Of a DNA stretch of 26,701 bases, positions 1,442 through 26,701 are shown piece by piece. The position numbers and the translations under genes are program-made. The notes beneath the pieces are model-generated. The model did no database searches. It saw only the letters and a list, made by a program, of their open reading frames with translations, and was not told the DNA's origin. How positions within the stretch are numbered: the first letter of the stretch is position 1; each line of letters opens with the position of its first letter. This DNA is from Nannocystales bacterium (GTDB lineage: Bacteria; Myxococcota_A; Polyangia; Nannocystales; Nannocystaceae): NCBI GenBank assembly GCA_050633305.1, contig JBOEGF010000030.1:1-26701 (forward strand), in the 5' to 3' direction.

Positions 1442-1645
1442 GGCTGGGTGCATACACGGGTTCGACCAGCGTGCGCGTTGATCGGCCTCCATCGTATCAA
1501 ACGCCCCCATCATGCGGAACGTCCGGCAAGAGGCACGGTGGTATCCGATTTGGCCCCCCCACACCCCGCTGCGAACGAGCTGTCCGCGGTGTTATCGGCT
1601 CAGGAGGCCGGCAGCTGCACCGGGGACGACGTCGTCGAATCCGGC

Positions 1646-2268
1646 CATACGGTTCTGTACTACGGTGTCTTGTCGGCCCGTCACGCCCTGCGCTCGGCGG
1701 TCGTGCCTCGCGCGGAGGAGCCTGCGCCCGAACCCAAGCAACTCGCGCTGTTTGTCCCTCGGGGGTCCATCGAGCTCCCGGGCACCACAACCTTGCTCGG
1801 GGCTCAGCTGCGGGATGCGGCTCCGTCTCGGCTGTCTTGGATGACGCTGCTGGCCCGGGTGTTCCGCATCGACATCTCGGTGTGCGCCCGCTGTCGCGGG
1901 CCCATGCGCGTCACTGGAGCCGTCACCACGCCGCAGGACATCGCGGGCGAGCTTCACGGTGCTCGGCCACCGCCGCGTGGGCCCGTGTCCGGACAACTCC
2001 CGCTGTTCTCGGCAACGTCCTGAGGGGTCTGAGCTGTGGCTGTGGATGGGCACCGCTTCGTGCGGGGCTGGTCTCGGCGTGCCGGGATTCTGGGCCTCGG
2101 GCCTCGGCGGTCGCTTCGGGCCGGCTTTTCGTCACCGATGCCTTCGCTCCGGCACGCTTTGCCTCAATCCACAGCCTCCCGCTGGCCCGCTGCGCGAGCA
2201 CCGCCCTCGGCGGCGAGAGACCGTACTCCTTCGCATCGGCTTTTTCCCACTTCGTTTCGCTTAAACGC
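1646..2268 (+). mobile_element. IS91-like (Y2/HUH rolling-circle) remnant: transposase C-terminus (to stop 2023) plus 3' non-coding end (putative oriIS)
   Basis: HTVLYYGVLS...RLSWMTLLARVFRIDISVCARCRGPMRV matches the IS91-like C-terminal pattern (YxGVL, WxxLLxRVFxID, CxxCxGxM). Homology with the copy at 21789-22091 stops at CGCTTAAACGC (2258-2268). Confidence 0.75.
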
Positions 2269-3885: not shown

Positions 3886-3970
3886 TCGAGCTCCCGGGCA
3901 CCACAACCTTGCTCGGGGCTCAGCTGCGGGATGCTGCTCCGTCTCGGCTGTCTTGGATGACGCTGCTGGC
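3886..3970 (+). repeat. 85-bp direct copy of an internal IS91-like transposase segment (1770-1854)
   Basis: 84/85 identical by eye; followed immediately by TAACCGC (3971-3977). Confidence 0.92.
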
Positions 3971-4490
3971 TAACCGCGAGCCCGAGCTGGCCCCTGTCCT
4001 CGAGGTGTCGCTCGAGCTGGTCAACGATACCGAGGAGACATTCTATCTCGTAGAGGAAGGTTCTGGGTGTACTCCGTTCGGCATCCGGCGTGACGGAATG
4101 TGGCTCTCGGCCGAGACGGGATTCCACTGTGGGTGTGAGTGCAATCCGCCCGGCAACCAGATCGGTATGGTCTCCGTCGCGCCCATGCAATCGCTTTCGT
4201 TGTCCTGGGACGGTCGTGCGCTGGCGACCTATACAAGGCACACTCTGTGTGAGGAGAAGCCCTTTCCCCAACGTTGCATCTCGGAAACGGATGGGTCCCC
4301 ACAACCGCTCGAGCCGGGTTCGGTTGAGGTGGTGATACCGGTCCTAGGCCCCGACTCGCCGATGCTGATCCCCGAGCGGCCTCGGATCACCGAGATGTGT
4401 CCAGGGGAGGCATCCTTCTCGATCGCCCTCGAACTCGAAGGCGACGACATCTCCGTTCAGGTCCCACTGAGCACAATCGTCCTGAACTGA
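3957..4490 (+). pseudogene. 5'-truncated Cys-containing exported-type protein fused in frame to a transposase fragment
   Basis: Protein-like sequence EPELAPVLEVSLELVNDTEETFYL...FHCGCEC...LSWDGR starts right after TAACCGC; no native start or signal peptide seen; ATG 3957 comes from the duplicated IS segment. Confidence 0.55.
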
Positions 4491-4529: not shown

Positions 4530-4875
4530 CGGGTGCGAGCCTCAGCGCCGCGAGGTCGGGCAACGACTCCGCGTCGCCCCCGAGAAGCCCTGCGGCCTTC
4601 AGCGCTCGCCGATACTCGCGCTCGGTGTTGGGGCTCATCCTCAGCTGGCGAGCGATGCTGAGGGCGCCCTCGCCAAGTGGGTACAGTCGAACGAGCTCTT
4701 GAAGCCGATGCATGCTGATCCTCCGCATTTCGGCAGCATCACCGCATCACCGGTCGCGCCTACGCTGTGCGCTGGCCTCCCCTTCAGGAGGGAGGGGTCA
4801 GTTCTGCCGAGCTGAGGTGGATCAGTTCAGGCGAGCTGGGCCCGGATCAGTTCTGCCGAGCTGGCGTGGATCACA
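4530..4875 (-). mobile_element. istA: IS21-family remnant: left end plus istA N-terminal HTH only
   Basis: MHRLQELVRLYPLGEGALSIARQLRMSPNTEREYRRALKAAGLL; end begins TG (4875) with three 17-bp repeats TCAGTTC(TGC/AGG)CGAGCTG at 4798, 4822 and 4847; no DDE domain or istB. Truncation point approximate. Confidence 0.75.
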
Positions 4876-4897: not shown

Positions 4898-6256
4898 TGT
4901 GCATGTCAAGACATAGGTGATGTGCATGTCAAGACATAGGTGACACTTCCGATCATTTCATCGGTGACACTTCGGCGTCGCCAACAGGTGACATCCGAGC
5001 CACGCCGGGCGGGACAACGCGGCCACAATCCCAGGTCACGCTGCGAGCTCGAATGTTCCCAGGTCGAGTTCGTAGAAGTGAATCCGAACGCTGTCGGAGG
5101 CGATCGTCTCGATTCCAACTTGGTACCCACGGAAGCCGGACCCGACCTTCAGAAGCTGGCCACGGTATCGAACACGCCCCGACGACTGGACCTTGCGAAC
5201 GACGAAGCTCGACGGGTACCGGGCATTTCGCGTTCTACGGTACAGCCTTGGAGAGCGACGGTAGATGTCGCCGGGCGTGCGCATCTCCAGCGCCTCATGG
5301 GGCCGAACGTGGTTGAACTCTTGTCGCCACTCGTCGAGCTTCGCTTGCTGGGCAGTTTTCGACTTCGCGCCGACATCCTCGACTTCGTACCGCATGTCGA
5401 GATGCATGCGCTCGTGCCCGCCGTTGTCTTGGGGGTGTCCCGGCCGACTTCGATGCACGCGAATCCCAAGCGCAACCCACCATGCTGAGAGAGTCGTCGT
5501 GCCATGCCGCGCCCGGGTCGAGGCGAACGGAGGGCCGTTGTCGACGAGGATCGCGCGAGGAAGCCCGTACGCGTCGAAGAAGCCTTCGAACGCGCTCCTG
5601 ACCGTTTCGGCGGACGAGTTGTCGAGGAGCTGCGCGCCAAGAACGAATCGGCTGTATGCATCTCGGACCGTCAGCGGCTCGCACTTCGCACCGTCCTTGG
5701 AGTTCCACCATCCCTTGAAGTCCACCGTCCACAGGTCGTTGGCGTCCTCCACGTTGGGCGAGGGCGCATCGGTGGGACGGTCGCACTTCACCGCGCGACG
5801 CCGCTTTCGAGCCTCGCCCGCTCGGTCGAGGATGCGTGCGATCGTTCGGACGCTCGGAGCGTCCTCCTGCCCTCGAGACAGTACTTTGTGGAGCTTCTTC
5901 GGGCCCCACCGTGGATGCAGCGCTCGCTGCTCGAGTACCTGCAGCACCATCTCGCCCGAGGCGCGCAGAGGCGAGCTGTGAGGGCGTTTCGACAAGTCCT
6001 CGAGCCCTTGGACCCCCCGCGCTTTGAAGCGCTCCAGCCACTTGTACGCAGTCTTGCGACTGATGCCGTGCTCCCGGCACAGCTCCGAAATGTTCGCGTC
6101 CGGCTCAAGTGCCATGAGCACAAACTGGTGTCGAATCTTCACGACTGACGTCTCCCGCCAGGGCACGGTGCAAGGAGAACATCCCCCTGCGCGAGCGACG
6201 CGAGGTGTTACCCATGTCCTGGCACTGATGTGTCACCCATCTCATGGCACCAGACC
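4898..6256 (-). mobile_element. IS481-family insertion sequence
   Basis: Left end TGTGCATGTCAAGACATAGGTGA with GGTGA(CA) repeats at 4916, 4939, 4963 and 4987; inverted related repeats at 6205-6225 and 6230-6250. No clear target duplication; right boundary approximate. Confidence 0.8.
5036..6166 (-). CDS. IS481-family DDE transposase (HTH plus integrase core)
   Basis: MPWRETSV, ELCREHGISRKTAYKWLERF, WTVDFKG, LVDNGPPF, HPQDNGGHERMH, EFNHVRPHEALEMRTP. Confidence 0.93.
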   Translation of the reverse strand: MPWRETSVVKIRHQFVLMALEPDANISELCREHGISRKTAYKWLERFKARGVQGLEDLSKRPHSSPLRASGEMVLQVLEQRALHPRWGPKKLHKVLSRGQEDAPSVRTIARILDRAGEARKRRRAVKCDRPTDAPSPNVEDANDLWTVDFKGWWNSKDGAKCEPLTVRDAYSRFVLGAQLLDNSSAETVRSAFEGFFDAYGLPRAILVDNGPPFASTRARHGTTTLSAWWVALGIRVHRSRPGHPQDNGGHERMHLDMRYEVEDVGAKSKTAQQAKLDEWRQEFNHVRPHEALEMRTPGDIYRRSPRLYRRTRNARYPSSFVVRKVQSSGRVRYRGQLLKVGSGFRGYQVGIETIASDSVRIHFYELDLGTFELAA

Positions 6257-14162: not shown

Positions 14163-14813
14163 TCACTCCTGGCAGACGGTCCCGCTGTCGTCTCCCTGCG
14201 TGTAGTCGGCGCACCCGTCGCATGCGTCTTCGGACCACGTGAATACGATGGGCTCCTCGCCGCCGGTGACGGTGATGGTCCCGACATAGAACTCGTCGTC
14301 GCAGGCGGTGTCCTCGGCGTTCGAGACGATGCCCGACACGGCCAGGGTGGCATCGTCAAAGACGATGGTTCCCGAGATGTCGCTGGTGCCGCTGTCATTG
14401 AAGGAGGCTGCGAGCCAGCCCTCGCTGTCGCTGTAGGTGAGGTCCTCGTAGGACCAGGCTGTGTCGAAGGTGTCTGCGATGAGGGATCCGTTGATAACGA
14501 GGCTACCGCTGCTGTTCTGCCGCATCTCGCCGTCGTAGACAAACCGTCCATCGATTCCGAAGCCATCGAATTCGTAGGTGTCGGCGTCGGCTCCTTGGCT
14601 GACGACGACGGTCCCCACCCACGCCTGGTCGTCGTCATCGGTACAGTCACCGGTGATGGTCATCGCCGTCTCGGTCTGGGTGATGGCCGGGCAGGCATCT
14701 TGGGCGAGCACGAGGACGTTGGTCAACACCAGCCAGACAGCTGGAAGCGTGACGGCGGCGAGGGTCTGGGCGGGACTGACTGCGTTGGAAGATGCAGGGC
14801 TCTCGTCGGTGAA
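14163..14813 (-). pseudogene. 5'-truncated acidic, Cys-containing exported-type protein
   Basis: Protein-like from FTDESP (ACPAITQTETAMTITGDCTDDDDQAWVG, ACDDEFYVG, ACDGCA); no start codon of its own before the hipA sequence begins. Confidence 0.55.
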
Positions 14814-14814
14814 T

Positions 14815-15375
14815 CTCGTTGGCGGGCAGCCACCCGAACGCCGGGTTGGGCAGCTTGAGAATGTGGGTGGAGGGCGCGCCGGCGAGGGGCAACAGGATCG
14901 CGTCGGCGTGTACGCACACCGGGAGCTTGTCTTGCGCACCCGCGAGCGAGAGCCGATTGCTCTCGTCGAGCGTGGCTGCGACCGCGACTGGCTCGACGAG
15001 GCGCGCGAGTTCGGCGGGGGATAGCTGCCGGTAGTGCCCCACAGGCTCGCTCGCAGCTGGTTCCCGGTCGACATCGAGGACCAACGCACCCGCACACTCG
15101 CCGCCCAGTGCGACCAGGAGCCGCCAGTCATCGTCGGGCGCGATCCTCAGGCGTCGGGCAATTCGCTCGCGAGTGCTGCCCTCGGGCAGCAGGTTGTCGA
15201 ACCAGGCATGGACACCCTCCTCGATCGCGGGCTCCTGGAGCTGCAGCGAGCTCGAGACCGGCCACGCGTCGTCGGCCCCCAGCCAGCTCGGCGCATATGT
15301 GAATCGCCAGGGCTCGAGCACTCCGACGAGGGTGCCGCGGTAGCGGACGAAGAGACGCTGCGGCGACTCGTTCAT
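14815..15375 (-). pseudogene. hipA: hipA-like toxin, truncated after about 187 aa
   Basis: HipA N-terminal domain (FTYAPSWL, PVSSSL, WFDNLLPEG, GGECAGAL), P-loop SLAGAQDK, THILK, ANE; the C-terminal catalytic half is absent. Confidence 0.85.
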
Positions 15376-15614
15376 GCGTCGGCTCGATCCGAAAGGCTCA
15401 GCGAGACGCGGACTCCGAGTATTTCGAGGACGGCGAGCACCTTCCCGAGCTGAAGCGATGCCTTGCCGGCCTCGAGCTCACCAATGAAGCGCGGACCTAC
15501 GAGCGCGAGCTCACCGAGCTGCACCTGTGTGAGCTGCTGCGCCTTGCGTCGCAGGCGGACGACTGCACCGATCGCCTTGGGGGAGCGAGCGTCGATATGT
15601 TGGAGGGCCGCCAT
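15372..15614 (-). CDS. hipB: HipB-like XRE HTH antitoxin/repressor
   Basis: IGAVVRLRRKAQQLTQVQLGELALVGPRFIGELEAGKASLQLGKVLAVLEILG; 4-bp ATGA overlap with hipA. Confidence 0.88.
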   Translation of the reverse strand: MAALQHIDARSPKAIGAVVRLRRKAQQLTQVQLGELALVGPRFIGELEAGKASLQLGKVLAVLEILGVRVSLSLSDRADA

Positions 15615-15732
15615 CTTCCCGAGCGGGAAGATTAGCGGAGAGATGCCCTCGATTCCAGAAGAAACTTCCCGCTCGGGAAGATCAGGACTCGCCAGACGGC
15701 TAGATGGAGACAATCTTCCCGATCGGGAGGAT
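15613..15732. promoter_or_regulatory. Three palindromic operators ATCTTCCCG-NN-CGGGAAGAT
   Basis: Copies at 15613-15632 (perfect), 15663-15682 and 15713-15732 (one mismatch each); exactly 50-bp period, immediately upstream of hipB. Confidence 0.85.
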
Positions 15733-15849
15733 TTGGGGCGAGCGCTCGCGTCCGAGCGAAGCGGAGCGTGGCGGCTCGTCGTCCATCCCGCGAGCGTGAC
15801 GCCGAGGGTCGGATTCATCGCGTCCGTAGCGTAGCTGCGCCTACACAAG

Positions 15850-15880
15850 TTCCTTGGACACGGATCGCGACCCGGGCAAC
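15850..15880 (+). promoter_or_regulatory. Bipartite motif TTCCTTGGACAC-N11-CGGGCAAC, copy 2
   Basis: Matches 10959-10989; 53 bp before GTG 15934. Confidence 0.6.
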
Positions 15881-15933
15881 GGATGGCGTGACGCGGCGGT
15901 GTGCCGCACCACCCCCACCAAGGAAGCGCTCCC

Positions 15934-17142
15934 GTGAACACGCCAATTTCTCATCTCCACACGCTGGTTCTCATCTCATCGGTCCTCTGCGGTTGCGCGG
16001 AGGGGGACGTCGTCGACCTCGACGCCGACGACACCGACCAGGCCGCAGAGACGGACGAAGACTGGGACCCCGTGGCCGCAGCCTCGCCTGCGCCGACGCT
16101 GCGCTTCAAGAAGGACGCGTACTTCACTAACGAAGGCACCGGCAAAGCGAACGTCGTCGTACAGCTGAGTCAGGCGAGCAGCAGCGAGGTGTCCGTGGCG
16201 TACAAGACGCGCTCCGGGACTGCGCGGGCGACCGACGACTTTCATTGGGGGAACGACGTCTTGGTCTTCGCGCCCGGCCAGACTCGGAAGACCGTCACCG
16301 TGGATCTTCGGGATGACGACAAGCCGGAGGACGACGAGATCTTCACGGTACGGCTGTCCAATCCCAAGAACGCGAACATCACGACGGGATCCGTCAACGT
16401 GACGATCGTCGACGACGACGGTGGTTCGGGCGGTGGTTCGGGAGGCAGCTCGGGCAGCGCGTGCCCCTCCGATGACGACCTCCTGTGGGAAGACGACTTC
16501 ACCCCGTTCGACGTGTCCGACTACCACAAGCAATACAGCTGCGCTGCGAGCTCCCTGGACGTGGTGAACGGCGCACTGCGGATCACGACCGACGCAGGCC
16601 CGGTGACGCCCGGATGTTCGTACTTCTCGAACAACGAGTACGAGCAGAGGAAGCACCGCACCGAGCTCAGCGTGAACGCCTCTCGAACCCCGGCCGGCGA
16701 ACCTTTGTGGCTGAAGTTTCGCTTCAAGCTGGCCTCCGACAATCTGCCGGTGGGCCACATCTTCCTGCAGATGAACGGGAGCGAGCCCAACGTGAGATCC
16801 AACCCGGAGATCATCTTCCACCGCCAGGGCTCCAACATCACCGTGAACATCATGGCAAGGGACGGGAACCTCACCGTAGGCCCGGCCCAGACCGACGAAT
16901 GGGTCGACATGGTCGTGCACGTCAAGCAGTCGCGCGGCAACGACGGCTTCTTGAAGGTGTGGATGAACGGCGAGAAGCGCATCGACTACACCGGGAAGAC
17001 CAAGCGCTTCGCGGATCAGACGGAGCAGATCTTCAAGTTCGGAAACTACTGGGGCGAAACGAGTGGGTCGGGCAATCGCGTGGCGTTCTTCGATGACCTG
17101 AAGATCGGCTCGGGGGCCCCGCCGGCCTGCGTGCTGGAGTAG
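15934..17142 (+). CDS. Lipoprotein: Calx-beta domain plus polysaccharide-lyase-like beta-jelly-roll domain
   Basis: Lipobox LCG-C; Calx-beta (SGTARATDDF, LVFAPGQTRKTVTVDLRDDDKPEDDEIFTVRLSNP, VTIVDDD); lyase-like HRTEL, IFLQM, WVDMVVHVKQSRGNDGFLKVWMNG, FKFGNY, FFDDLKIG. AGGAAG upstream of the GTG. Confidence 0.8.
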   Translation: MNTPISHLHTLVLISSVLCGCAEGDVVDLDADDTDQAAETDEDWDPVAAASPAPTLRFKKDAYFTNEGTGKANVVVQLSQASSSEVSVAYKTRSGTARATDDFHWGNDVLVFAPGQTRKTVTVDLRDDDKPEDDEIFTVRLSNPKNANITTGSVNVTIVDDDGGSGGGSGGSSGSACPSDDDLLWEDDFTPFDVSDYHKQYSCAASSLDVVNGALRITTDAGPVTPGCSYFSNNEYEQRKHRTELSVNASRTPAGEPLWLKFRFKLASDNLPVGHIFLQMNGSEPNVRSNPEIIFHRQGSNITVNIMARDGNLTVGPAQTDEWVDMVVHVKQSRGNDGFLKVWMNGEKRIDYTGKTKRFADQTEQIFKFGNYWGETSGSGNRVAFFDDLKIGSGAPPACVLE

Positions 17143-21311: not shown

Positions 21312-21788
21312 ACATGTGGACACCGCGGGCCCGAGGTCTGTGACACCGGGTGGTCCGGCCCCAACGGAGCGCGGCCTCCGCGTGCGTGAGATCCGTACAA
21401 GAAGGGTACGTCGGCGGGGAACTCGGATGCTCCCGTTGGGCCGCCCGATTGGCCCAACTACTTCGTGCCTCGAGACCTCCTCGTTCACAGAGGCCAGCGG
21501 GCCAGGCCCCGCGGCCGAGCCCGGTCTTGCGCCGATCCACCTTTGGCCGCTATCCGGCGGGGATCGGCGAGTCAGATTCCGGTTGTGTAAAGGCCGGCGC
21601 AGGTCCAGAACGTCGGGGCGACACACGAGCCCGGGAAGGAGGTGTTGTTGCGCGCGGTCTGGACAATGAGGACGCCCTCGCCAAGGCTCACGCGGAGGAA
21701 GGCCCCGTCACCAGACTGGACTCCGTACCCGAAATCGTCCAGCTCGACGAGCCCCGACTTAGCCTGAGTGTTGCGCAACGTCAATCGC

Positions 21789-22091
21789 CCACCGCCGCGT
21801 CGGCCTGCGTCCGGACAACTCCTGCTGTTCTCGGCCCCGCGCTGAACGCTCAGGGCTCTGCCGGTGGATGCGCGCCGCTTTGCACCGCGCTGGTCTCGGC
21901 GTGCCTGGGTTTTGGCCCCGGTGGCTGCGCGTTGCGCTTCGGGCCCGCCTTTGGGCCCCTATGCCTCTGCTCTGCCAGGCTCAGCCCAAATCCACAGCCG
22001 GCCGCTGGCCCGCTGCGCAACGACCGCGCTCGCTGGCAGGAAGCCGTACTCCTCCGCCCCTGCTTTTTTCCATTTCATTCCGCTTAACCGC
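21789..22091 (+). mobile_element. Second IS91-like 3' end (diverged paralogue of 1967-2268)
   Basis: Encodes PPPRRPASGQLLLFSAPR* versus PPPRGPVSGQLPLFSATS*; shared blocks GCTGGTCTCGGCGTGCC, AATCCACAGCC, CCGCTGGCCCGCTGCGC, CCGTACTCCT; ends CGCTTAACCGC. Confidence 0.78.
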
Positions 22092-22303
22092 AGAAGCTGC
22101 ACACATCGGTCATCCTCCCAATCGTGGAGGATCCACGACAAGACGTAGGCGTCGGCGGAGGGTAGAGGATCGTTGAATGCATCCAGTGCGCTCAACGTGG
22201 CTCGTGGTCGCTGCGCATCCCCCATCGCAGGCGCATTGGCGGCGATGACCTCGGGTCGGTCGATGAGGGTTCCGCGTAGTTTCGGAGTTGCGGTGAGGAT
22301 CGC
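22092..22303 (-). pseudogene. Internal fragment of a SAM-dependent O-methyltransferase
   Basis: AILTATPKLRGTLIDRPEVIA...DAFNDPLPSADAYVLSWILHDWEDDRCVQLL; bracketed by TCCGCTTAACCGC at 22079-22091 and 22304-22316. Confidence 0.85.
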
Positions 22304-22505
22304 TCCGCTTAACCGCTAACCGCCGAGGCCGAGGCATAGGGTGACAGCGAGCAGTGTACGGGGAGACTGGTGCGGCATCGCTGGGGTTGTTCCGCCCCAG
22401 GCCGAGCGGTTTAAGCGTTCCCGAGAAATTGTTTCGGCCCCAGGCGCAGCGCAACGCGACACGGCAGATAGACCCGCTGGTGCTTCCGAGATACCCTCGT
22501 CAGGG

Positions 22506-24005
22506 ATGCGCAACCTTGGACCTGCCGGCGTCGTCGTCGTCGTCGGAGCGGCGTGCTCTCAGGCCCAGCCGGCGAACGAGACTCCGAGCACCGGTGGGGG
22601 GAACTCGTCATCGCTGACCGGAGACCCGGTCTCGACCTCTGGCGCAGAGGATTCAAGCGAGACCTCGTCCGCCAACTCGACCACGCTTTGGACGACCACC
22701 GACGCGATGAGTTCGAGCAGCGACGGATCGACCGGGGGCCCTCCGCCCGTCGTTTCGTGGTCTCCGGCGGTGTTGGACTACCAGTTGCGGTGCAAGTTGA
22801 TCTCGGGCGCGGACATCGAAGATCCGACCGCAAACGATACGCACCACCGGGCAAACCTGCGAGGGACCGATCTCGGCATCCCGCTGGTGGTGGACGATCA
22901 GCTGCTGTTGTTCTTCGGGGATACACAGGGCTATCGGACGATCTGGATGCCGGGTGAAGACCCCGACACTGTCGGGCGGGTAGACGCTGCGCAGGCGCGT
23001 GAGGACCCCGGTGTGTTGTGCGACAGCCTCGAGTTCTTGCTGACCGCCGACGACCCCTCCGTCGCCGCTGCGAGCGACCCGTCGATCCTGCGCGACTTCG
23101 CGGCGAGCACGATGCTCGTCCCACCAGGGGAAGTGCTCTCGGACTACATCGGCGATTCACCGCCTCCGTTTCCGAACATCCCGGGAACCTTCGAAGTCCC
23201 AACCGGGGCACTTCGGATCGGCGACGATGTCTACACCTGGTGGGCTGGGAAGACGACCTTCGACCCGCGACCGCAGATGACGTTGAGCTACCTCGCGCGC
23301 TGGGATCGACCTCGCACGCTTCCCAACCACCAGATCATCCGGCCTTTCGACGCGCTGGAGGGGGGCGCGCTGGGGGGCCACTTTCTGCAAGCGTGGCCGA
23401 TCGTGCTGCAAGAGTCCGTGTACGTGCTGGGCACGGGCGACTATCGATTCGGCGGTGTGTCGCTGATGCGCTTCCCCGTGGCGGAAATCGAGACGGGAGA
23501 CGAAGCGGCGGTGTTCGACCCTTCGAGCGGAACTTGGGTCGACACCGCAGGGGCGGATCCCGGTGGGCTCGGGTCGATTCCCACGTTGTTCGAGGACGAC
23601 GGCGTCGGCGAACTCGGCGGCGTGTTCTTGGAGGCGTCGGGCGTCTTCATCGTGATGTACCAGCGCGAGCTGCACGACCGTGGTGGTGCAGTCATCGACA
23701 ACCGCGTCGTGTTGCGGACCGCCGCGCAGCTCGAGGGCCCGTGGAGCGACGCGGTGACGGTCATCGACATGGCGGACCCCGCGTTCACCGCCCAGCATTG
23801 CTGCGGGGCGGATGGGTGCCAGGGCAACCAGATCTTGAACTGCTTCGTCGCGGGGCTCTATGCGATCTATCCGCTGCCGTCCCCGACCGTAACCACCGGC
23901 GACGACGGCACCCTCGACGTGGACTTGGCGTTCGTGGCGTCGACGTGGAACCCCTACAACGTCGTGCTGTTCGAGACCCAGGTCGAGATCACGCCCGGGT
24001 TCTAG
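22506..24005 (+). CDS. DUF4185-like lipoprotein (putative beta-propeller glycoside hydrolase)
   Basis: Lipobox GAA-C, Ser/Thr linker, GTDLGIP...LLLFFGDT, VPTG, VGELG, LRTAAQLEGPWS, GLYA, STWNPYNV. Confidence 0.75.
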   Translation: MRNLGPAGVVVVVGAACSQAQPANETPSTGGGNSSSLTGDPVSTSGAEDSSETSSANSTTLWTTTDAMSSSSDGSTGGPPPVVSWSPAVLDYQLRCKLISGADIEDPTANDTHHRANLRGTDLGIPLVVDDQLLLFFGDTQGYRTIWMPGEDPDTVGRVDAAQAREDPGVLCDSLEFLLTADDPSVAAASDPSILRDFAASTMLVPPGEVLSDYIGDSPPPFPNIPGTFEVPTGALRIGDDVYTWWAGKTTFDPRPQMTLSYLARWDRPRTLPNHQIIRPFDALEGGALGGHFLQAWPIVLQESVYVLGTGDYRFGGVSLMRFPVAEIETGDEAAVFDPSSGTWVDTAGADPGGLGSIPTLFEDDGVGELGGVFLEASGVFIVMYQRELHDRGGAVIDNRVVLRTAAQLEGPWSDAVTVIDMADPAFTAQHCCGADGCQGNQILNCFVAGLYAIYPLPSPTVTTGDDGTLDVDLAFVASTWNPYNVVLFETQVEITPGF

Positions 24006-24840
24006 ACCGCCCCTCGCAGGCTGACTTCCAGTACGACCGGTACCGCCGCGTTTCGGCTCTCCTACCCCGGGGCGAAAAATCCTTCGCGATCCGCCGCTCC
24101 GGGTTCTTCCTCAACCTGCTAGTGTCCTGAGTCCGTAGCGTCGAGAAAAAGTTAGGCTTCCTCGCCGAGGTCGAGGAGCGTCTGACAGTGACGCTGGACA
24201 GCGGCGATGATCTGGTCGGCGGACTTGGTCCAAATGAAGGGCTTCGGTTCCTCGTTGTGTTGGTCGATGAACTCACGGACAGCGTCCTCGAGTTCTTTGG
24301 TGGAGCGATGAACGCTCCTTCTCAGGGCGCGTTCGGTCAGCATCGCAAACCATCGCTCCACCTGGTTCAGCCACGAGCTGTAGGTCGGGATGAAGTGGAA
24401 GTGGAATCGCTTGTTGCGTTTGAGCCACCGCTGGATCTCGGGTGCGGAGTGCGTCGCGTAGTTGTCCATGATGAGGTGGACTTCGAGGTGCTCCGGGACC
24501 TCGCGTTTGATCTTGTTGAGGAACTTCCGGAACTCGACTGCTCGGTGCCTGGGATAAGTCTGTCCAAGAACAGACCCGGTCGCGACGTCGAGCGCGGCAA
24601 AAAGGGTCGTGGTCCCGTGGCGAAGATAGCTCGGCGTCTTTCGCTCGGGCTTTCCGAAGATCATCGGTAAGACCGGCTGCTTGCGTTCCTGCGCCTGGAT
24701 TTGAGACTTCTCGTCGACGCAAAGTACGACTGCGTTGTCGGGTGGACTCATGTACAAGCCGACGACGTCGCGTACTTTTTCGACGAAGAAGTCGTCGGTA
24801 CTCAACGTGAAGGTCGACTGACGGTGGGGCTGGAGTTTGA

Positions 24841-26164
24841 GGGAGTGTCTGAAGTTTTGTGTGTGAGGCCGACTGGCTGAAAATGGGCTCCCGAGAGGAG
24901 CAAGCATGAACACCAAAAACGAAGAAGTCGAAAAGCTGCTGGACCAGCTGAACATCACGAAGGACACCCAGATCGTGGGCGAGGGCGGGCTGCTCAAGGA
25001 ACTGACCAAACGGCTCCTGGAGCGGGCTCTCGAGGGCGAAATGACTGCGCACCTTGGCTACGAGAAGGGCGAGCGGGGCCCTGAAGGTCGCAGCAATCCG
25101 CGCAACGGCTCGTCGACCAAACGGGTCAAGACGGGCAGCACGGAAGTCGAGATCGAGGTTCCCCGCGATCGCCGAGGCACGTTCGAACCGGAGATCGTCA
25201 AGAAGCGCCAAGGTCGTCTCGACGGCTTCAACGACACCGTGATCTCGTTGTACGCGCGTGGGATGAGCACCCGAGATATCCGCGGCCACCTCGAAGAACT
25301 CTACGGTATCGAGGTCTCGCCCGAGCTCATCTCGAAGGTCACCGACGCCGTCCTCCAAGACGTCGGAGCATGGCGTAAGCGGTCTCTAGCGGCGGTTTGG
25401 CCGATCGTCTACCTGGACGCCATGGTCATTCGCGTCCGCGAGAGCGGCAGCGTGCGACGCAAGTCCGCGTACCTGGCGATTGGCATCGGAGTCGAGGGGC
25501 AGAAGGAAGTCCTCGGCCTATGGCTCGAGGAAACCGAGGGCGCGAAGTTCTGGCTCTCGGTCGTCACCGAGCTCAAGAATCGCGGCGTCGAGGACATCCT
25601 CATCGCCTGCGTCGACGGCCTCAAGGGCTTTCCCCAAGCCATCGAGGCGGTCTTCCCTCAGGCGACTGTCCAGACGTGCATCGTGCACATGATTCGGAAC
25701 TCCACCCGGTACGTGTCCTGGAAGGACAGGAAACAGGTCGCCAGAGACCTCAAGCCGGTCTACACTGCTGTGGACCGGGAGGAGGCCGAGGTGGCACTGA
25801 CCGTGTTCGAGGAAGCGTGGGGTCGCCAATACCCCATGATTACGCAGTCCTGGAGGTCGAACTGGGAGCGCGTGGTTCCTTTTCTCGACTTCCCGCCGGA
25901 CCTTCGGAGGATTCTGTATACCACCAACGCAATCGAGTCCTTCAACGCTCGAGTCCGCAAGCTCGTCAACGGTAAGGGACATTTCTCGACCGACGACGCC
26001 GCGTTCAAGGTCATCTACCTCGCTGTCGTCGCCGCTGAAAAACGATGGACTCGAAGACCCCAAGGCTGGGCTCAAGCCGTCAACCAACTCGCCCTACATT
26101 TTGAGGGCCGACTGCCCATCTGAAGCCGCGGGGTCTCCGCAAACACAGAAAATCGGACACACTC
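24841..26164 (+). mobile_element. IS256-family element
   Basis: 8-bp target duplication GAGTTTGA (24833-24840, 26165-26172); imperfect terminal inverted repeats, 20/28 by eye. Confidence 0.95.
24906..26123 (+). CDS. IS256-family transposase (intact)
   Basis: ERALEGEMTAHLGY, VPRDRRGTFEP, IVYLDA, ACVDGLKGF, QTCIVH, YTTNAIES. Confidence 0.96.
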   Translation: MNTKNEEVEKLLDQLNITKDTQIVGEGGLLKELTKRLLERALEGEMTAHLGYEKGERGPEGRSNPRNGSSTKRVKTGSTEVEIEVPRDRRGTFEPEIVKKRQGRLDGFNDTVISLYARGMSTRDIRGHLEELYGIEVSPELISKVTDAVLQDVGAWRKRSLAAVWPIVYLDAMVIRVRESGSVRRKSAYLAIGIGVEGQKEVLGLWLEETEGAKFWLSVVTELKNRGVEDILIACVDGLKGFPQAIEAVFPQATVQTCIVHMIRNSTRYVSWKDRKQVARDLKPVYTAVDREEAEVALTVFEEAWGRQYPMITQSWRSNWERVVPFLDFPPDLRRILYTTNAIESFNARVRKLVNGKGHFSTDDAAFKVIYLAVVAAEKRWTRRPQGWAQAVNQLALHFEGRLPI

Positions 26165-26701
26165 GAGTTTGAACGCGCGCCACACTCTGCTCACCGAGCT
26201 CTGGCTGACGCCGAGTTTCTTCGCGAGCCCCCGGGACGACCAGTGCGTTTGCCCCTTGGGGGTCGTCTCCAAAGTCGTTCGGACGATGGACTCGACGAGT
26301 TCGTCCCCGAGTCGTCGTTCCACCTTTGGCCGAGGAAGATCGTGGAGCGCCGAAAGCCCGCCGTCCAGGAAGCGCCGCTTCCAGTTGGACACCGTTGCCA
26401 CGGCGACGCCGAGGTCGGAGGCGATATCGCCGGGACTCTTTCCTTCCGCACACGCGAGGACAATTCGCGCCCTTACGACAAGCCGGTGTGAGACGGTCCG
26501 GGAACGCGCCCATCGTTCGAGGTCGGCACGGTCGCCCGCATTGATCGTGACCGGTGTGAGAGGACGGCCCATTCTTCGCGTTGATGCTGCCACACCCCCG
26601 CAACAGCCTGAGGATGTCGAAATTCCCCATTCTAGAACGTTTTCTCGACGCTACGGACTCAGGACACTAGACCCTATGAAACGACCGGCTCTCCTTCGAG
26701 G

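Follow-up and report, generated by a model that had tools for sequence, protein, structure and literature searches.

A 13-bp stub of an ISCR-type element end behind a captured gene piece in a Nannocystales genome, and a possible route of capture at oriIS

The stretch of DNA analysed here (the window, 26,701 nucleotides at its full length) holds the smallest foreign-DNA unit found in a genus-wide pattern in which an element end, a cut piece of DNA and a truncated copy of the same end follow one another. This layout is secure; that it arises in one step, through capture of loose DNA at a resident oriIS, is our best guess and is held with slightly more belief than doubt. The window's own genome (G000) comprises 11.0 Mb in 90 contigs and is 92% complete; G001, G002 and G004 denote relatives in the same genus.

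The unit begins with a 5'-truncated, apparently ISCR-type element end of 303 bp (21789..22091, plus strand) that comprises the last transposase codons and the oriIS region, was the top match of the element-end profile search and shows 78.5% identity with the final 302 bp of the full element at C50:12212-13942. Its terminal 13 nt (22079..22091, plus strand), delimited by repeat matches and the end profile, read TCCGCTTAACCGC, and the initial annotation had rightly placed an identical 13-mer at 22304-22316, at a spacing of 225 bp, with an extra TAACCGC abutting the right copy at 22317-22323. Exact copies of TCCGCTTAACCGC number two in the 11.0-Mb genome, both in this unit; with up to two mismatches allowed, the 13-mer has four matches in the window as against 0.63 expected. 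The terminus reading CCGCTTAACCGC was seen in one of 135 catalogued ends, that of the window at 22079..22091. The left 13-mer is the element terminus (oriIS), and the right 13-mer (22304..22316, plus strand), which shows the variant of the adjacent end only, and the 7-mer (22317..22323, plus strand), a head-to-tail duplication holding no insert, are stubs of that terminus. The spacing is, as had been pointed out, a multiple of three, but this is without consequence, and an in-frame fusion of the O-methyltransferase insert was ruled out, since an in-frame TAG directly precedes the piece.

Both flanks of the unit are cut genes. At its left edge the truncated end meets the C-terminal piece of another gene (21572..21788, minus strand), whose homolog in G006 forms the end of a 542-residue frame, and immediately after the 7-mer the next segment begins with the 5' end of a gene (22324..22378, minus strand) that is cut after approximately 19 codons. 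A public contig aligns with the window from 22322 to 22681 (21 differences, 4 gaps) and carries unrelated sequence at the place of the window's stub; its own continuation, read by eye, encodes LGSASGC, which we take to be a lipoprotein-type signal, and has 2 bases in common with the window stub. The left and right flanks as one rejoined gene were ruled out, these being pieces of different genes. Three unrelated cut genes thus meet at element ends, and the site is not a plain insertion.

Over the 395 kb downstream of the 135 ends, the window stub was the sole uncatalogued same-strand suffix of an end reaching 8 nt or more; in the same scan the opposite-strand control gave three such suffixes (two of 8 nt and a longer one that is a real 17-nt stub), and the upstream control gave two, each of 8 nt. 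Genome-wide, 7-mer stubs near ends were not enriched (4 against 4.65 expected), and the 9-mer class counted 3 against 0.36 expected. The same 7-bp duplication as the TAACCGC of the window also occurs at G002:C18:109151. Elsewhere in the window lie a second truncated end of the same element family (1645..2268, plus strand; 624 bp), which is 77% identical to the 303-bp end, and an 85-bp internal element piece with TAACCGC directly after it (3886..3977, plus strand), which is 99% identical to 1770-1854 and probably represents another short-stub unit.

The 212-bp insert (22092..22303, minus strand) comes from the interior of an O-methyltransferase gene and is cut on both sides; its donor is absent from the assembly. 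It had been described as a stop-free O-methyltransferase piece, and it is indeed stop-free and matches PF00891 (Methyltransf_2; E=1.2e-15) over profile positions 79-149 of 210. It had also been said to start just after the expected GxGxG motif and to end just after ILHDW; the order relative to these motifs was right, but "just after" is approximate, the comparison with homologs placing the start 4 residues past GGGHG and the end 9 past ILHDW. Seven homologs encode normal protein through both junctions, without the repeats, and have at least 5 mismatches to the 13-mer within 40 bp of the junctions, and so do not suggest a donor gene that natively contained both 13-mers. The expectation that other element ends would likewise hold captured fragments was also upheld, cut gene pieces being present in the same layout elsewhere.

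Compared with the nearest host paralog (C32:53157-53369), the piece is 74.6% identical in nucleotides and 83% in amino acids, and the mismatches at the first, second and third codon positions number 10, 4 and 40, respectively. With the differences falling mostly at third codon positions, the piece derives from a real gene that had diverged under selection, and not from copying of the host gene. An exact donor was found neither in the own genome (75% nt), nor in 40 relatives (69-76% nt for the best of the matches listed), nor in metagenome contigs, where the best of 31 loci reached 80% aa and 79% nt, nor in sequencing runs, where one run contig matched at 85% over 176 bp. Most probably the insert is a scrap with no function of its own.

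Long copies of the element are present in the own genome at C50:12212-13942 and C40:23990-25723; both are apparently frameshifted, and the assembly contains no full-length parent of the window's end. The transposase matches the PF04986 Y2_Tnp family and is 31% identical to that of ISVsa3 over 92% of the protein; VHLHA and RVCRY were present in 11 of 15 full elements scanned, and seven transposase frames were open. In intact frames (8 of 15 full elements) the distance from stop to end was 235-246 nt, compared with 235 nt in ISVsa3. The conserved core of the element end spans approximately 30 bp, the DNA after oriIS comprises 132 distinct flanks with no base preference, and the left regions of full elements align loosely, without a sharp terIS end. 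Against NF052416 (NCBIfam ISCR clade Ia), a 389-residue partial frame scored 134.7 with the cut-off lying at 925 bits, and NF033538 gave 38.6 against a cut-off of 125 bits. On these grounds the element appears to be an ISCR-type, one-tyrosine HUH element outside NCBIfam clade Ia, presumably of the rolling-circle kind, and the tyrosine of RVCRY would be catalytic.

It shares with the ISCR elements, which have been described as Y1 (PMC10288648), a single-tyrosine R-x-x-x-Y motif (RVCRY here, RLCRY in ISVsa3) and similar last bases (CCTAAACGC in at least 32 of the 135 ends, CCTATACGT in ISVsa3). With IS91, IS801 and IS1294 it has in common the match to PF04986, the lack of terminal inverted repeats and the retention of the ori end by truncated copies, but it differs in having no second tyrosine (R-V-C-R-Y, not Y-x-x-x-Y) and no target tetranucleotide by ori, the overlap being 1 nt where the exact donor is available; IS91 is reported to target CTTG/GTTC (PMC13181058). 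From the miniature right ends of IS801, which are described as ending at a tetranucleotide (PMC3189936), the copies found here differ in that their truncation points are without motif and their flanks do not rejoin.

A 21-letter pattern of the end gave 56, 82, 38, 1 and 0 matches in G001, G002, G004, G005 and G014, respectively, and its reversal, used as a control, gave none. Outside the genus, 4 genomes among 300 others in the phylum had a single match each; as the pattern was exact, these sparse matches are uninformative on diverged elements elsewhere. Twelve contigs of G000 and 740 kb around end clusters, a chosen sample and not all ends, furnished the catalogue of 135 ends (75 from G002, 36 from G004, 22 from G000 and 2 from G001), the counts being non-independent since the genomes are kin. 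Fifteen of the 135 ends were full-length and 118 were partial, 75 of the latter being at least 90% identical to a full element; these close partial ends measured 21-1505 bp (median 151), and 18 of the 75 were no longer than 50 bp. The initial annotation had proposed repeat-spacer-repeat capture at oriIS: the capture gained support, the repeat being the element end and other ends holding pieces as well, but the repeat is not fixed, end copies ranging from 7 to 1505 bp when the shortest stubs are included. No motif was found at the cut among the 75 ends (ACGC 0 against 3.7 expected, CGC 40 against 40.6 expected), and a ter-like motif at the truncation points was ruled out accordingly. The layout of end, piece and truncated end was present in three other assemblies.

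The truncated copies proved to be largely local. Among the 38 copies that reached at least 95% identity and 40 bp in length, the best match was a full element in the same region for 26 and one elsewhere for 12; the locally matching copies were all on the strand of the full element (26/26), and 23 lay downstream of it (counted by element, 9 versus 1, p=0.011, in three related genomes). Empty or near-empty duplications, with 0-2 bp between ends of 31-712 bp, accounted for 7 of the 75, and stutters of 6 to 18 bp occurred too; the 7-mer TAACCGC of the window is one of these empty duplications or stutters. In two arrays, terminal variants were common to the full element and its nearest copies, and the one insert with a 99.9% donor match is that nearest to its full element. 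Variants inside the copies of the largest array nonetheless change out of order, and three of five arrays (G002:C18, G000:C50 and G002:C30) show no rise with rank in divergence from the full element, so that newest-first order in a strict sense is not demonstrated. Ends of another subtype were located right beside full elements at G002:C19:29643, C30:723176 and G004:C27:97588.

On the ori side, homologs extending to the junction were available for 27 of the 135 ends. Agreement with the homolog was seen in 2, 8, 8 and 11 of these 27 cases at the four terminal bases of the element, and in 19-27 cases at the 40 positions that follow; the former values are close to chance for the base composition, consistent with an exact end that needs no target. 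The same comparison ruled out CGC or ACGC as a target motif. On the other side, a homolog was available for 23 of 102 ends, and in none of the 23 did the homolog of the left flank continue into the right flank. Overlaps here were 0 nt in nine cases, 1 nt in six, 2 nt in four and 3 nt in two, with single cases of 4 and 6 nt, such that 19 of 23 were of 2 nt or less; the mean of 1.3 nt is close to the approximately 0.9 nt expected by arithmetic for blunt joins. Counted by hand, the junction opens into element or repeat DNA in approximately 11 of the 27 cases on the ori side and 5 of the 23 on the left. An exact donor was identified in one case: the sequence at G002:C18:126558-127481, directly after a full element, is identical at 923 of 924 positions (99.9%) to the intact host locus C17:275778-276701, with a 1-nt overlap at each junction and a cut inside the IF-1 gene. 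Clearly essential genes (gyrB and IF-1) were cut at the non-ori junction only, and none of 55 frames at the ori junction matched a ribosomal, polymerase or gyrase family; this restriction is compatible with insertion into a living donor too.

With regard to the origin of the captured DNA, the pieces on contig C50 of G000 match host genes at 67-87% and their IS-like parts at 88-98%, whereas the ends are 93-97% identical to the local full element. An N-terminally cut gyrB piece on this contig (L002:11990-13720) shares 84% identity with the gyrB of the host and no more than 83% with that of any of the other 59 family genomes searched, which points to an unsampled species of the genus as its source. 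For the pieces in G000 it is possible that the donor is missing from the 92%-complete assembly, or that the contig is misplaced; the finding that an array contig of G002 carries the only gyrB match of that genome argues against misplacement. When nine stretches of G002 and G004 were compared with their own genomes, one matched over its whole length at 99.9%, another over a 1.3-kb part at 96%, and a third had identical IS copies; the others matched at 71-93% or not at all, and twice were closer to another species than to the host.

The process that we consider somewhat likelier than its negation starts with a nick at oriIS, whereupon the end is recopied in part and loose DNA is joined on the spot without homology. 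HUH enzymes are described as nicking one strand, holding the 5' end on a tyrosine and releasing it by means of a free 3'-OH (PMC5714925). By analogy, the HUH transposase would nick oriIS, and the 3'-OH of the flank would prime recopying of the end for n bases. Closure of the nick by the new strand's own 3' end would leave an empty duplication; were the 3'-OH of a loose piece to close it, with the new strand joined to the other end of the piece, the order end, piece and stub would result. The loose DNA, entering by uptake or as prey DNA, would thus be inserted without homology, with the old end, bound by the enzyme, on one side and the new copy on the other; the second join might be made by Ku-type end joining or by another subunit of the transposase. 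The identity of the end, the cutting of genes at both junctions and the lack of target motif or microhomology are read from the sequence, as are the local, same-strand and mostly downstream placement of the truncated copies and the empty head-to-tail duplications; we infer the nick with its covalent intermediate, on the basis of HUH chemistry, and also the order of joins, the maker of the second join and the route of DNA entry.

A single event of this kind would explain at once the exact ori junction, the random stub, the local templating and the lack of homology. Closure of the nick by the 3' end of the new strand predicts empty duplications, and the distance of the inserts from host genes, while the stubs match the local element, also counts for capture in place. 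The window unit matters for the mechanism in that its stub shows the variant of the adjacent end only and, at 13 bp, is too short for recombination by RecA and far below the length of the conserved core; it is probably too short for re-initiation as well. Against capture in place, the 13-bp stub may be an eroded longer copy, internal deletions being known to occur in the arrays. Further points against it are the out-of-order variants, the other-subtype ends, the 12 of 38 close copies with a best match elsewhere, the restriction of cuts in essential genes to the non-ori junction, the missing full-length parent of the window's end, the frameshifts apparent in both long copies of G000 and the junctions that open into element or repeat DNA.

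A rather unlikely alternative is the route proposed in print for ISCR1 (PMC7707992), in which a truncated end lands by a gene elsewhere and a circle of insert and end, formed by rolling-circle read-through, is then taken into the resident element through homologous recombination or an exchange between ori sites, which makes the 13-bp stub an eroded remnant. It yields the same layout, a sandwich of a full element and a remnant has been described for ISCR28 (PMC12772301), and both the other-subtype ends beside full elements and the variant mosaic fit units built elsewhere. It nevertheless requires three events, all motif-free, and has to accommodate a 99.9% donor locus that is intact with the cut falling inside IF-1, stubs of 50 bp or less that are common (18 of 75) and go down to 7 bp, and stubs that match the local element when the inserts are foreign. 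Distinctly less probable is that DNA of a relative, bearing an element end and its flank, pairs through RecA with the resident element, its far end then joining illegitimately inside the resident end and thereby duplicating it. The ComEC and Ku families are present in G000, and such an anchoring in homology accounts for the variant mosaic and for essential genes being cut only at the non-ori junction. Illegitimate joins, however, usually involve several bases of microhomology, whereas overlaps here were of 0-2 nt in 19 of 23 cases and 1 nt with the exact donor; the crowding of joins within 50 bp of ori and the empty duplications of 7-31 bp are also left without account. The variant mosaic, the other-subtype ends, the cuts in essential genes and the possible erosion keep both of these alternatives alive.

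Two further explanations carry very little weight. Plain insertions of miniature elements by one-ended transposition of the IS801 type, a chance repeat or an assembly chimera are highly improbable as a group and have largely been refuted already. IS801 does make right-end minis of 229, 360 and 679 nt (PMC3189936), and in the sequencing runs found there was no read support across the junctions (five runs had shares of 0.06-0.07, none of them RNA, and none of the four examined spanned the junctions); but flanks rejoin in 0 of 23 cases, those of the window are pieces of different genes, no tetranucleotide is present at either end, the 13-mer is unique to the unit in the genome and the layout recurs in three other assemblies. 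Most improbable of all is that the unit is kept for a function, as a spacer-like memory giving read-through antisense RNA against the host O-methyltransferase. Of the antisense idea in the initial annotation, the orientation held, as the insert is antisense to the element, and the ori region of ISCR1 is reported to have outward promoters (PMC6218425). Against it, 27 flanks were sense and 18 antisense among the 45 that could be called with a weak strand caller (200 of 268 calibration calls right; 66 of 132 flanks unclear), giving no antisense bias; the insert is 75% identical to the host paralog with a longest perfect match of 11 nt, no sigma-70-like promoter was found in 21700-22600, and unit lengths vary from 0 to approximately 30 kb.

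Capture in place at oriIS would bear on an old question, ISCR elements being noted for gathering genes beside oriIS. No ISCR transposition had been shown experimentally as of 2018, according to one account (PMC6218425). The published models of ISCR capture, as far as the sources at hand describe them, invoke read-through past terIS, circles and homologous recombination, and are multi-step inferences from selected resistance loci. Already in print, in the same sources, are the variable region after the oriIS of ISCR1, the circle-and-recombination model, the sandwich with two ori ends and the IS801 minis; a literature search, with most subscription journals outside its coverage, found no paper that describes long arrays of stubs or a capture in one step, without homology, at a resident oriIS. 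The elements here share with described ISCR elements the variable DNA that abuts oriIS and the captured DNA lying between two ori ends (PMC12772301; PMC7722449). In contrast to ISCR1, ISCR2/ISVsa3 and ISCR28, the arrays found here contain up to 12 ends and random gene scraps with no evident selected cargo, their stubs go down to 7-13 bp and the joins with the exact donor are homology-free. Helitrons offer an analogy as HUH elements that collect gene fragments, but they are described as doing so past the terminator (PMC5714925), whereas capture here is on the ori side. CRISPR and integron arrays are likewise analogous in their repeat-piece-repeat layout and downstream bias, and unlike in that no fixed repeat length or uniform unit exists here, the pieces measuring 0-29,913 bp.

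The present collection comprises more than a hundred natural junctions at which no selected cargo is evident, and the predictions drawn from them (an exact ori end, a random stub and no homology) make the question of ISCR gene capture directly testable. It may be, though we place a little less belief than doubt in so broad a claim, that ISCR-type transposases serve as stationary, sequence-blind capture enzymes, a nicked oriIS joining any loose DNA, whether of the cell or of related species, with a recopied stub each time, and arrays logging the DNA met. If true, this would supply the missing route for genes on the oriIS side of ISCR elements, which read-through past terIS does not reach, and the 13-bp unit would be the minimal footprint of capture. 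One-step capture at a resident ori, if it occurs, would constitute a new activity of HUH transposases and a homology-free uptake of genes between species.

Several minor observations were made in the course of the analysis. The closest twin of the window unit, at L046:13440-13838 (G002:C18), has 334 bp from the interior of a multicopper-oxidase gene after an end and before a 72-bp stub. At L069:10756-13292 (G004:C20), two units share 523 identical bases, made up of a 395-bp stub and 128 bp of the insert before it, a pattern to be expected had recopying started at a secondary end and continued into that insert. The largest array of G002 (G002:C18:170913-194027) ends approximately 9 kb from the only gyrB match of that genome. 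Two 42-bp matches situated 389 bp apart at L043 (G026:C3:43302-43732), in another family, received no score from the element-end profile. Within the window, a frame apparently starting mid-gene follows the piece at 3886-3977 and its TAACCGC; three 21-bp direct repeats at a spacing of 24-25 bp (4795-4864) are found close to an rve integrase-core transposase (5036-6166); a gene pair at 14647-15941 encodes a HipA N-terminal domain, in a frame that is seemingly cut, and an HTH protein; and a DDE_3 (IS630-like) element with 35-bp inverted ends (24119-26670) is split by a transposase gene of the Mutator/IS256 family (24906-26123).
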